Positions 24,686 through 56,765 of a stretch of 64,000 nt of DNA are shown one piece after another (positions within the stretch are counted from its first letter, which is position 1; every line of letters starts with the position of its first letter). The position numbers and the translations under genes were made by a program. The stretch spans positions 352,001 through 416,000 of the forward strand of contig CAWCNJ010000004.1 of assembly GCA_963796955.1 (NCBI GenBank). The letters run 5' to 3'. The notes below the pieces were generated by a model. It was not told where the DNA came from. It made no database searches and saw nothing but the letters and a program-made list of their open reading frames with translations. The DNA is from Endomicrobiales bacterium. Its GTDB lineage: Bacteria > Elusimicrobiota > Endomicrobiia > Endomicrobiales > JALOBY01.

Positions 24686-24763
24686 ATCCCGCCATTGTGA
24701 GGCACACACGCCGTTGACGGCGGGATTTCGCGGTACGGCAATGATAACAGCAAGAGGTGCTCC
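24686..24763 (+). repeat. Hairpin+RBS leader module, copy A (upstream of accB)
   Basis: Ungapped 67/78 match to 33072-33149. Stem ATCCCGCC/GGCGGGAT; ends CAAGAGGTGCTCC-ATG. Confidence 0.88.
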
Positions 24764-25201
24764 ATGAACACTGATTCCCTGAAAAAACTGTTGTGCTCCC
24801 TGAGGGAGACGGACGTCGAAGAATTGAAATATGAAGCCGGTGAAACCAAGATATCTTTTCGCAAAAGCAACGTAAAGGCCGCTGCTGTTTCCCAGTCCGC
24901 GGTCGCGGTTGCCGCTCCAGTTGAACTGGCAAAGAAGATGGTATCCATCAAGTCCAACATGGTCGGCACCTTCCATCAGGCCGACAAGGCCAACCGCCCG
25001 CCGTTCGTTATGGAGGGTAACCATGTGCTGCCCGGCAAGAAAGTAGGCGTCATCGAAGCAATGAAGATAATGAAGGATGTTACCAGCAACGTAAAAGGCA
25101 AGATCGTTAATGTTCTTGTTAAAGACGGCCAGCCGGTAGAGTACGGACAAGAACTTTTTACCATTGACCCCAACGACGTGAAAGAAGAAGACGATAAATA
25201 G
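24764..25201 (+). CDS. accB: Acetyl-CoA carboxylase biotin carboxyl carrier protein
   Basis: IEAMKIM biotinylation motif, VGTF, VEYGQELF; precedes accC. Confidence 0.93.
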   Translation: MNTDSLKKLLCSLRETDVEELKYEAGETKISFRKSNVKAAAVSQSAVAVAAPVELAKKMVSIKSNMVGTFHQADKANRPPFVMEGNHVLPGKKVGVIEAMKIMKDVTSNVKGKIVNVLVKDGQPVEYGQELFTIDPNDVKEEDDK

Positions 25202-29313: not shown

Positions 29314-29436
29314 GTACATTTCGGCCATCTTTCGGATTCACACTTTCAGAACGGCCTCCTGAGACTGCGTCTCATAGCGGAGGCCTCTAGAACCAACACA
29401 CTCTGAAAGTGTTCACCCGAAAATAGCCTCGTGTAC
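29314..29436 (-). repeat. ~120-nt structured hairpin element, copy 1 (inverted)
   Basis: Reverse complement aligns end to end with copies 2 and 3. GTACA...TGTAC ends; invariant GAGACGCAGTCTC core. Confidence 0.92.
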
Positions 29437-29476
29437 GCCGCATTAAGAACAACTGCTGTTCTGTCAACGAAAAACC

Positions 29477-29603
29477 GCTATGTACGAGGGTATTTTCGGG
29501 GAGCATTTTCAGAGTGTGTCGCCTCTCGAGGCCCTCGTCATGAGACGCAGTCTCAGAGGGCCGTTCTGAAAATGCGAGTCGAAAGATACCCGAGATGCAT
29601 AGC
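29477..29603 (+). repeat. ~120-nt structured hairpin element, copy 2
   Basis: Nested stems GCTATGTA/TGCATAGC, GGGTATTTTCG/CGAAA-G-ATACCC, GCATTTTCAG/CTGAAAATGC, GGCCCTC/GAGGGCC, GAGAC/GTCTC. Confidence 0.92.
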
Positions 29604-33071: not shown

Positions 33072-33149
33072 ATCCCGCCACTGTGAGGCACACACGCCGT
33101 TGGCGGCGGGATTTCGCGATGAAGCTATGACAAAAACAAGAGGTGCTAC
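33072..33149 (+). repeat. Hairpin+RBS leader module, copy B (upstream of ilvD)
   Basis: Same length and spacing to ATG as copy A; ends CAAGAGGTGCTAC-ATG. Confidence 0.88.
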
Positions 33150-34799
33150 ATGAGAAGCGATGCAATAAAGAAAGGGGCGCGACGCGCGCCGAACCGCTGC
33201 CTTATATATGCTACTGGTATATCAGATCGTGACATAAACAAACCTTTTATCGGTATAGCCTCATCTTTTACCGACCTTGTTCCGGGCCACATAGGCATGC
33301 GCGACCTTGAACGTTATATCGAACGCGGCATCGCTGCCGGCGGCGGAGTTCCATTTATTTTCGGAACACCCGCTATCTGCGACGGTATTGCTATGGGCCA
33401 CGGCGGCATGCACTATTCCCTGCCCAGCCGCGAACTAATTGCCGACATGGTTGAATCCGTCGCTAACGCTCATGCGCTTGACGGCCTCGTGCTGCTCACC
33501 AATTGCGATAAGATAACCCCGGGCATGTTGATGGCCGCGGGGCGCCTGAATATTCCGACGATCGTCGTTACCGCCGGCCCCATGATGACCGGCCGGTACG
33601 GTGGCAAGCGCCGCAGCTTTGTGCGCGATACCTTCGAAGCTGTCGGCCAGTATCAGGCGGGAAAAATGAAGGGATCCGAGCTGACCGCCCTTGAGATGGC
33701 GGCCTGCCCCGGTGCAGGTTCCTGTCAGGGTCTTTATACGGCTAATACAATGGCCTGCCTGACCGAGACCATGGGTATGTCCTTGCCCGGCTGCGCTACG
33801 GCTCTTGCGGTTTCGGCTAAAAAACGTCGTATCGCCTATGAATCCGGTATACGCGTTGTTGAGCTCGTAAAAGAAAATATTACTCCAAGAAAGATAATGA
33901 CGGAAAAAGCCTTTCATAATGCCGTTATGGTAGACGTTGCACTCGGCGGTTCATCCAATACCGTTCTGCATTTGCCGGCTATCGCCCATGATGCCGGAGT
34001 GAAACTTGAACTGGATATGTTCGATAAGGTGTCTAAGAAGACTCCACATATAACCTGCATGGAGCCCGCCGGAGACCATTACATGGAAGACCTGGATTAC
34101 GCGGGCGGCATACCGGCTGTTCTTTCAGCGCTCAGGGCAAAACTGCTGCCCGGTCTTACGGTGAGCGGGAAAAATATACTTGATATAGCAAAAAATGCAG
34201 CCGTGCTTGATACAGATGTTATCCGCGCGAAGAACCCGTATCATAAAGAAGGCGGCATAGCCATTTTGAAGGGCAATATATCGCCAGATGGCTGCGTAGT
34301 GAAGCAAAGCGGAGTCTCGGAAAAAATGATGGTCTTTACCGGCACTGCCCGCGTTTTTGAATCCGAAGAAACAGCGATGAACGCCATCCTTGGCAAAAAG
34401 GTCAAGAAAGGCGATGTCGTGGTTATACGCTACGAAGGTCCCAAAGGCGGCCCGGGTATGCGCGAGATGCTTGCCCCGACGGCAACGCTGCAGGGCATGG
34501 GCCTTGCCGATTCAGTGGCACTTATTACTGACGGCAGGTTCTCAGGCGGCACCAGGGGCCCCTGCATAGGCCACATTTCGCCTGAAGCAGCGGAAGGCGG
34601 ACCTATCGCCGCTATACGCGACGGAGATATTATTAAAATAGATATACATAAACGCCAGCTGAACGTTGAGCTGACGCCGGATGAGATAAAAGCGCGCATG
34701 GCCAAATGGAAGCCGCCTGCGCCGAAATTCACCACCGGTTATCTGAGCCGATACCAGAAGATGGTAACATCGGCGAGCACGGGCGCCATTGTCAAATAA
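33150..34799 (+). CDS. ilvD: Dihydroxy-acid dehydratase
   Basis: [40 protein letters not shown]. Confidence 0.97.
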
Positions 34800-34862: not shown

Positions 34863-36598
34863 ATGATAAAAACAGGAGCAGAGATACTGGTGGAATGCCT
34901 TATGCGCGAAGGGTCGGATATGGTTTTTGGCTATCCGGGCGGCCAGGTTATTCCGATATTTGACGCAATATACCGCAGTAAGCTTAACCTTGTGCTGGTG
35001 CGCCATGAACAGGGCGCCGCCCATATGGCAGACGGTTTTTCACGCTCGACCGGCAGGGTCGGCGTTTGTCTTGCCACATCAGGGCCGGGCGCCACAAACC
35101 TTGTTACCGGTCTTGGCACGGCATACATGGATTCTATACCCATGGTCGCTATTACCGGACAGGTGCCGACAACATTGATCGGCAACGATGCTTTTCAGGA
35201 AGCCGATACGACGGGCATAACGCGCCCTGTCACAAAACATAATTTCTTGGTGAAAGATGTTAAGGACCTTGCGCGTACGATTCGCGAGGCTTACCATATC
35301 GCTTCCACCGGCAGGCCGGGTCCCGTCCTGGTGGATATTCCCGCTGACGTTCAGCGGGCTTCTACGGAATTCATTTGGCCAGAAAAAGTCGATATCAGGT
35401 CGTATAAACCGAATCTCGTTGGACATCCCGGACAGATAAAAAAAGCCGCGCAGGCTATAAACGAGGCGAAACACCCGGTGCTCTACATCGGCGGCGGAGT
35501 TATTACGAGCAGTGCGGAAAAAGAGTTATGCGAGCTGGCTGCCAAGGCTGAGATCCCGGTTACAAATACGTTACTTGGGATCGGCGCTTTTCCGCCTCAG
35601 TCGCCGCTTTATCTGGGTATGCCGGGCATGCACGGAACATATTACGCCAATATGGCCATACAAAATTCCGATCTGATAATTGCCGTAGGCGCCCGTTTGA
35701 CGACAGGGTTACCGGAAAGGTCTCGGCTTTCGCACCGAAGGCAAAAATAGTCCATATTGACATCGACCCGACCTCGATCTCTAAAAGTATTGTGGCAAAT
35801 ATTGCCATAGTCGGAGACGCAAAAGGCATACTGAAAGAATTGCTTAAAGATGTCCGCAACAATAAGCATGCCGAGTGGATGAAGACCATCGCAAATTGGA
35901 AAAAGACACATCCTCTCACATATAAAGACACAGACAACAGGCTGCGCCCGCAGTACGTGATCGATCAGATCAGCGAACTGACAAAAGGCGAGGCGATAGT
36001 CGTTACCGAGGTGGGCCAGCATCAGATGTGGGCGGCCCAATTCTATAAGGCCAGCAAGCCGAGGAATTTCTTGAGCTCAGGCGGTCTTGGCACCATGGGT
36101 TTTGGATTTCCTGCCGGTATAGGCGCGAAAATGGCCAACCCTAAAGAGCAGGTTATAGTTATAGCGGGAGATGGTTCCATTCAGATGAACATTCAGGAAA
36201 TGGCTACCGCCGTGCTTAACGGGGTGAACGTTAAAATAGTTATACTTAACAATTCATATCTTGGCATGGTGCGCCAGTGGCAGGAGATGTTCTGGGACAA
36301 GCATTATTCTTCCGTCTGTCTGAAAAAGAACGACCAGTGCCCGTTCCGCTGCAACAAGCGCACCGCCGACTGCCCGGGCTATATACCGGACTTCGTGAAA
36401 CTTGCCGAGGCCTACGGGGCGGTGGGTATGCGTGTCACTGATAAAAAAGATGTAATCTCGTCATTGAAAAAGGCATTAAAACTCAACAAGACGGTTGTTA
36501 TGGAATTTATAGTTGAAGAGCAGGAAAATGTTTATCCCATGGTGCCGGCCGGCCACGCTCTGGATGAAATCGTCACTCTTACAACTAACCTCGCATAA
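34863..36598 (+). CDS. ilvB: Acetolactate synthase large subunit (apparent 1-bp frameshift at 35696-35698)
   Basis: [14 protein letters not shown] and GMPGMHG in the first frame; VGQHQMW, GGLGTMG and GDGS in the second. One extra T restores GARFDDRVTG. Confidence 0.94.
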
Positions 36599-37105: not shown

Positions 37106-37225
37106 GTACACGAGGCTATTTTCGGTGGGCATTTTCAGTGTGTGTCGCCTCTCGAGGCCCATGTTATGAGACGCAGTCTCTGAGGGTCGTTCTGAAAATG
37201 CGAAGCGAAAGATAGCCGAATGTAC
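37106..37225 (+). repeat. ~120-nt structured hairpin element, copy 3 (ilvN-ilvC spacer)
   Basis: GTACACGAGGCTATTTTCG...GAGACGCAGTCTC...CGAAAGATAGCCGAATGTAC. Confidence 0.92.

Positions 37226-56071: not shown

Positions 56072-56765
<694 letters not shown>

Follow-up and report, generated by a model that had tools for sequence, protein, structure and literature searches.

Mycobacterial interspersed repetitive units (MIRU) insert at start codons with little harm to the host gene (PMC12548453), and the REP2 repeats of Neisseria and IR-A/IR-B repeats of Borrelia carry internal stem-loops, a ribosome-binding site (RBS) and an ATG directly upstream of unrelated open reading frames (ORFs), with REP2 spanning 120–150 bp, including a promoter and marking co-regulated genes (PMC3184786). 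Among transposable elements, the autonomous IS900 (IS110 family; 1,451 bp), which encodes a transposase, targets translation initiation signals (PMC8141618), and IS608 (IS200/IS605), whose right end has TCAA after a hairpin, transposes as one strand (PMC3201880). The GTAG and CGTC REPs are described in PMC3733652 as mostly head-to-head dimers that lie mostly downstream of genes in either orientation. For the start-codon repeats (MIRU, REP2), neither the mobiliser nor the targeting rule is known.

The window analysed here is a 64,000-nt stretch (G000:C4:352001-416000) of the genome of an Endomicrobiales bacterium of the Elusimicrobiota (hereafter G000; assembly 81% complete). The nearest relatives of its EF-P come from Elusimicrobiota/Endomicrobiales. 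The window contains three copies of a short leader cassette, one each before accB, ilvD and bioD, with the following features:

24686..24763, + strand: cassette copy before accB, whole unit (pairwise alignment, tail model).
24686..24726, + strand: GC-rich variable hairpin of the accB copy, long type, with an 8-bp outer stem.
24725..24731, + strand: left arm of the covarying end pairing (ATT-TC-RC) in the accB copy.
24754..24759, + strand: Shine-Dalgarno (SD) hexamer brought by the cassette in the accB copy (predicted duplex with the 16S 3' end, -9.5 kcal/mol).
24759..24765, + strand: right arm of the covarying end pairing (GY-TC-AAT) in the accB copy, extending into the AT of the accB start codon.
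24764..25201, + strand: accB (biotin carboxyl carrier protein, BCCP), host gene (NCBIfam).
33072..33149, + strand: cassette copy before ilvD (hairpin 33072-33112, SD 33140-33145).
33150..34799, + strand: ilvD (dihydroxy-acid dehydratase), host gene (NCBIfam).
56711..56764, - strand: cassette copy before bioD (short hairpin 56748-56764, SD 56715-56720).
56072..56710, - strand: bioD (dethiobiotin synthase), host gene (NCBIfam).

As an earlier note on this DNA had reported, the accB and ilvD leaders (24686-24763 and 33072-33149) align without gaps at 67 of 78 positions and the reverse complement of 56711-56754, before bioD, agrees with the accB copy in 37 of 44 positions; with the ilvD copy it agrees in 34 of 44. 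All three leaders are sense-oriented, with the hexamer GGTGCT and 2 nt preceding the ATG of accB, ilvD or bioD, and their stems agree with the earlier description, forming 41-nt hairpins at accB and ilvD and a 17-nt hairpin with one T-G pair at bioD. The likeness of the three leaders is beyond chance, and in a profile scan eight copies outside the seed scored 29–50 bits against a maximum of 19.7 in the reversed genome. The accB assignment follows the best family, BCCP, with an NCBIfam score under the curated cut-off. Folding energies of the whole leaders are ordinary relative to shuffles (z -0.2 to -1.4), and no promoter or terminator was found within the cassette in the three window copies. 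Specifically, a consensus scan gave no sigma-70-like promoter inside the accB or ilvD copy and, at bioD, placed a sense sigma-70-like site upstream of the hairpin and an antisense site that just touches the first base of the hairpin. Rfam 15 gave the cassette no identity: there were no matches at gathering score across the whole window, and a search of eight loci at E<=1 returned one tRNA and two weak miRNA matches, none of them on the cassette.

Beyond the cassette, the window holds a second, unrelated repeat family, consisting of a long inverted pair before thrH (29335-29593) and a 110-nt copy before ilvC (37110-37219) that is 89% identical. Additionally, ilvB (acetolactate synthase large subunit; 34863-36598) reads as two ORFs because of a frameshift near 35690-35700, which is either an assembly indel or a real break.

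Genome-wide, the cassette is a non-coding unit of 55–80 nt made up of a GC hairpin, a 36-nt A-rich tail and an SD site that fits the 16S end of G000 itself. A model of the tail recovered 18 units at 17 sites in G000, with two units in tandem at rplU. Every one of the 17 sites is in the sense orientation and faces a downstream reading frame, and 16 of them end at ATG (the rpsN and C7 copies having been put into this start-codon group by eye). The hairpins belong to at least four unrelated types of 13–45 nt, and the distance from core to ATG is 36 nt in 14 of the 24 copies from G000 and its sister species and 32–39 nt in all of them. The three window genes are thus three of the 17 sites, two of which are biotin-linked; the remaining targets include atpA, rplU, obgE, rpsN, rplO, infA, rpmJ, glyQ, a flavodiiron protein (fprA), a DtxR-like regulator, parB (tail only) and two hypothetical genes, and five of the G000 targets are translation genes of ribosomal-protein operons. 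Many randomly oriented copies unlinked to starts, the pattern that the earlier note had associated with an ordinary REP, were not found, and in SD-free searches of G000 the hairpin-only look-alikes numbered just one or two. By a manual reading of block-wise GC skew, 15 of the 17 sites lie on the leading strand, so gene orientation and replication-fork orientation are largely confounded, with the bioD and parB sites on the lagging strand, yet sense to the gene.

Some loci in G000 depart from this pattern. The one site of the 17 that lacks an ATG, a full cassette at G000:C3:152744-152813 (L087), ends in AAGATC, and directly behind it is a long reading frame without a start codon; this frame presumably encodes a protein resembling LarB. 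Two diverged look-alikes (E 1.5–1.8) are arranged divergently around a 125-aa ORF at G000:C8:280860-281460 (L092), one before a 294-aa ORF and the other an antisense array of three hairpins abutting the 3' end of a tRNA. The genes pgk and xseB (L091 and L093; G000:C8:89800 and 109653) are preceded by a cassette-type SD-spacer-ATG end that has no hairpin or core and is possibly a decayed copy, and an isolated, short cassette-type hairpin lies between two giant ORFs of about 4000 and 5100 aa (G000:C6:14142-41734).

The carriers of the cassette are a few uncultured Elusimicrobiota bacteria. The tail model matched five of the 104 genomes of the order: G000; G009, which lies outside the family of G000 and has many copies; and three further genomes, G007 (3–4 copies), G004 (one copy) and G184, where the match is without a hairpin. 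The sole genome from the same family as G000 (G001; 99% complete) had no copies by the tail model. Across the phylum, the tail model matched three of 151 genomes and a strict pattern one of 401, while an SD-free pattern matched 15 of 401, with multiple copies in G000 and G009 only; the 12 single SD-free matches outside G000, G009 and G007 were all without hairpin and tail. A pattern scan of metagenomes added 11 loci of sister species at ~73–85% identity to G000, all of them sense and before genes. Viral contigs gave no strict-pattern matches and 25 loose ones, each without hairpin and tail, phages gave no matches and plasmids only two 21-nt chance matches. The tail profile matched none of the loci L001-L080, which include the efp-accB gap of relatives, and a literature search that covered few subscription papers found no description of the cassette family. 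As the copies are kin, the P values given below for cassette statistics are too strong.

The cassette is a real feature, a start-codon-targeting repeat and most likely not a riboswitch, and it is probably a non-autonomous mobile element that inserts at translation starts and leaves the gene translated from the imported SD. Eight orthologous sites were compared between G000 and sister species at 73–85% identity. The atpA and rpsN sites are filled in G000 and sister alike, with the sister copy at atpA having an unrelated hairpin on an unchanged tail. Four sites are empty in G000 and filled in sisters: rpmA, a PTS-IIB-like gene, phoU and a cupin-like gene (names taken from sequences, without a family scan; the phoU site of G000 was read by eye as its reverse complement, and the upstream neighbour of the cupin-like gene differs between the compared genomes). 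Conversely, rplU is filled in G000 and empty in the sister-species locus L106, and obgE is empty in L106 and filled in both G000 and L113. At two loci, the PTS site and rpmA in L113, the RBS of the empty site can still be seen ahead of the hairpin, while at obgE it is not kept at the filled site; two of the sister comparisons could also be taken to show an AT duplication. The cassette is absent upstream of rpsN and rplO in three relatives and of infA and rpmJ in two, and none of 15 upstream regions of accB, ilvD and bioD orthologues from five relatives carries it. When the genes at G009/G007 sites were traced to G000, only one of 21 orthologue-like genes there was filled, with 33 of the 54 G009/G007 ORFs lacking a qualifying G000 orthologue. 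The biotin link that the earlier note had pointed out is unsupported, since the targets share no pathway, and a biotin or branched-chain regulon was rejected on the unrelated targets and the unfilled orthologues.

The largest collection of copies comes from G009, with 73 tail-model matches (E<=0.1) forming 56 sites before unrelated genes (e.g., enolase, ribonucleotide reductase, atpF, Lon, rubredoxin and P-II; the family scan covered 50 of the 54 G009/G007 ORFs). The sites fall into two registers. By script, 22 end at a start codon (23 after C1:17656 was assigned to this group by eye) and 24 stop directly ahead of a native SD, which is AGGAG in most cases; the rest comprise three with a more distant ORF, six without an ORF and one unparsed. 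The SD of the cassette itself is strong where it is the sole SD and weak where a native SD comes after it (duplex energy -8.8 kcal/mol for the start-codon register, n = 22, vs -4.7 kcal/mol for the pre-SD register, n = 24; P=7e-7), and in the pre-SD register the native SD and its spacer look like the unfilled RBS at the G000 orthologue (nrd, eno). The positional preference was also recovered with the SD-free pattern, which gave 21 matches at 19 sites in G009; 17 of these are at the start of a gene and in sense, compared with a crude background of 0.18 (P=3e-11), the count being a manual reading with hrcA judged by eye and the background having been computed on G000. Arrays in G009 are head-to-tail and all sense at gene starts, and on C14 one unit is nested in the tail of another, where excision restores the consensus tail with no target duplication. 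A cassette array before hrcA (L172; G009:C35:86300-86500) extends the apparent HrcA reading frame, and upstream of this array is an inverted repeat that we take to be CIRCE-like.

The earlier note had offered two readings of the leaders, a shared control element that responds to a protein or ligand and a mobile repeat that supplies an RBS. The presence and absence of copies in sister species, the tandem and nested units and an SD strength that tracks need all speak for the mobile repeat, while the responsive element is not supported, given targets without a common pathway, the single gene in 21 filled in both lineages and an SD accessibility like that of control genes (see below).

It is unlikely that the cassette is instead a domesticated module for translation or stability, in which duplicated copies were positively selected and the hairpin, A-rich spacer and strong SD insulate and stabilise the cistron that follows, so that AtpA or AccB, for instance, would exceed their upstream neighbours. 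The swapped hairpin on a kept tail at atpA would fit such a module, as would the atpA, rpsN and obgE sites common to sister species and a compensatory pair in the long hairpin (C-G in 10 and G-C in 5 of 15), which is possibly a single inherited event. Against it, close relatives have the same genes without the cassette, and the multi-unit and nested arrays, together with the six of 56 G009 sites lacking a downstream ORF, suggest element turnover; the covariation between the two ends is left unexplained. Domestication is partly compatible with the mobile element, as a later step.

This covariation joins the two ends of the tail, where ATT-TC-RC pairs with GY-TC-AAT through three covarying pairs. 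The R-Y pair is G-C in 41, A-T in 30, G-T in 4 and A-C in 3 of the 78 tails parsed out of 88 (P=6e-14) and is significant both in G000 with its sisters and, on its own, in G009. It was the top pair in a covariation scan of all columns of 77 tails, with none of 500 shuffles reaching its signal, and two more pairs of the same helix (T-A/G-C/C-G and C-G/T-A) rank high. On a tree with the pairing columns masked (a weak tree, built on 45 nt), the R-Y state switches 20 times (mean 25 and minimum 19 for shuffles) and the lineage four times, and therefore the pairing is not one inherited switch. The helix is predicted to be unstable on either strand (+2.2 to +4.7 kcal/mol), and RNAalifold predicted no pairs.

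Such a helix could make the cassette a cis-regulatory RNA, a reading that we consider quite unlikely: the weak end helix would cover the end of the SD and the AU of the AUG, and a protein or ligand would close it to control translation of a set of genes jointly. Consistent with this, the three covarying pairs would cover the start region, the distance from core to ATG is nearly constant and several G000 targets are translation or growth genes. However, the targets have no common pathway in either genome, and the two target sets hardly overlap (1/21). The pairing also covaries away from start codons, being Watson-Crick at R-Y in 17 of the 18 copies that sit upstream of a native SD, and the helix is less stable on the mRNA strand (+4.3 kcal/mol, with tandem pyrimidine mismatches) than on the opposite strand (+2.2 kcal/mol, with tandem G-A mismatches). 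Further, the predicted SD accessibility of 27 copies (0.16–0.67) is similar to that of 40 control genes (mean 0.41), and an Rfam match is absent. Because the pairing covaries where no start codon is covered, it is read as a feature of a moving single strand, which would be held by a protein, and not as an mRNA switch.

An ordinary, untargeted REP-like palindrome, its position and orientation arising from lagging-strand insertion and the loss of harmful copies, is very improbable, for although the hairpins are short GC palindromes, most G000 sites are on leading-strand genes and one of the two C8 look-alikes is antisense against a tRNA 3' end, neutral intergenic positions are nearly unused (in G009, 17 of the 19 sites from the SD-free pattern are at a start, vs 0.18 expected), the lagging-strand bioD and parB copies are still sense, hairpin-only look-alikes are nearly lacking in G000 and the head-to-head dimers that dominate the GTAG/CGTC REPs (PMC3733652) are absent.

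As a mobile element inserting at translation starts, the cassette would move as a folded single strand with paired ends, in which tandem G-A pairs would form at the two central mismatches on the non-mRNA strand. A host enzyme, most plausibly an HUH/tyrosine transposase acting in trans, would cut the right end (..YTCAA), and joining would leave no target duplication. The cassette would land either just before a native SD (between AA and GGAG) or at, or 1–3 nt before, a start codon; in the latter register the native SD would be pushed ~80 nt upstream, so that only copies with a strong SD of their own would be retained. Effects on mRNA stability or translation level would be a side effect, with no shared regulon.

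The right end is YTCAA in most copies, and left flanks are more similar to the right end than intergenic DNA is (P=0.002). In G000 and sisters, left flanks do not exceed intergenic DNA in likeness to an SD (P=0.21), and duplication of an RBS target site was unsupported (own vs permuted end similarity, p=0.065). Support is mixed for a native SD generally left upstream of the cassette: the tests for a displaced SD were not significant by duplex energy (P=0.70) or by motif (5/18 vs 2/19, P=0.23), and the significant motif result (11/23 vs 2/24, P=0.003; energy P=0.37) came from the third method tried, with automated left boundaries in arrays being visibly noisy.

The search for a cognate enzyme covered 11 of the 13 Y1/RAYT matches in G000, G009 and G007, all of which have other flanking repeats. 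Three Y1/RAYT-like genes in G009 (L163, L159 and L166) have long perfect palindromes of their own on either side, which bear no relation to the cassette. The IS110 transposase domain (PF02371) was not found in G000 (81% complete), G009, G007 and G001, and neither of its two matches in G004 has cassette ends.

A broader proposal is possible, though doubtful: the paired single-strand ends may steer the enzyme to the SD motif or start codon, hairpins may be swapped and the RBSs of core genes rewritten, letting a lineage adjust translation across its whole genome by means of one portable part. If the targeting is enzymatic, it would represent a natural means of addressing translation starts. The cassette offers several testable handles: it has two landing registers and an SD strength that follows need, its ends covary at three pairs, and essential genes (ribosomal proteins, IF-1 and ATP synthase alpha) have both filled and empty alleles. 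There is also a warning for annotation, as leaders of this kind mimic a regulon and may pass for new riboswitches.

The class of repeat is already known; what makes targeting directly testable here is the pair of registers, the tuning of the SD, the exchange of hairpins, the covariation of the ends and the presence of both filled and empty alleles. Relative to the GTAG/CGTC REPs (PMC3733652), the cassette arrays differ in being all head-to-tail, sense and at gene starts. The cassette resembles IS608 (PMC3201880) in its hairpin, in the TCAA terminus of most copies and in its proposed one-strand behaviour, and the single nested site that is legible shows no target duplication, but its hairpin-to-TCAA distance is ~36 nt, vs 10 in IS608, and, unlike IS608 and REPs, it has no fixed left tetranucleotide and flanks none of the 11 Y1/RAYT genes examined. 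The oriented insertion into translation-initiation regions is common to the cassette and IS900 (PMC8141618), whereas the cassette contains no ORF and no IS110 gene was found in the three carrier genomes searched.

The comparison with MIRU and with the Neisseria and Borrelia repeats is one of described features. Like MIRU (PMC12548453), the cassette is a short and apparently mobile repeat that settles at start codons (16 of the 17 G000 sites and 22–23 of the 56 G009 sites), seemingly with little harm to the gene. Expression past a MIRU depends on an internal ORF coupled at -4 nt in that account, while the cassette relies on its own SD; a MIRU-type relay ORF at -4 nt occurs in eight of 23 G000 and sister copies, and the G009 core is without that ATG. 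Similar to REP2 and IR-A/IR-B (PMC3184786), the cassette has a 3' RBS and ATG before unrelated ORFs and a similar copy number. Compared with REP2 as portrayed there, it is shorter (55–80 nt), shows no promoter by consensus scan in the three window copies and no sign of co-regulated targets, and it is further distinguished by one exchangeable hairpin, by tandem and nested arrays and by a second register before a native SD.
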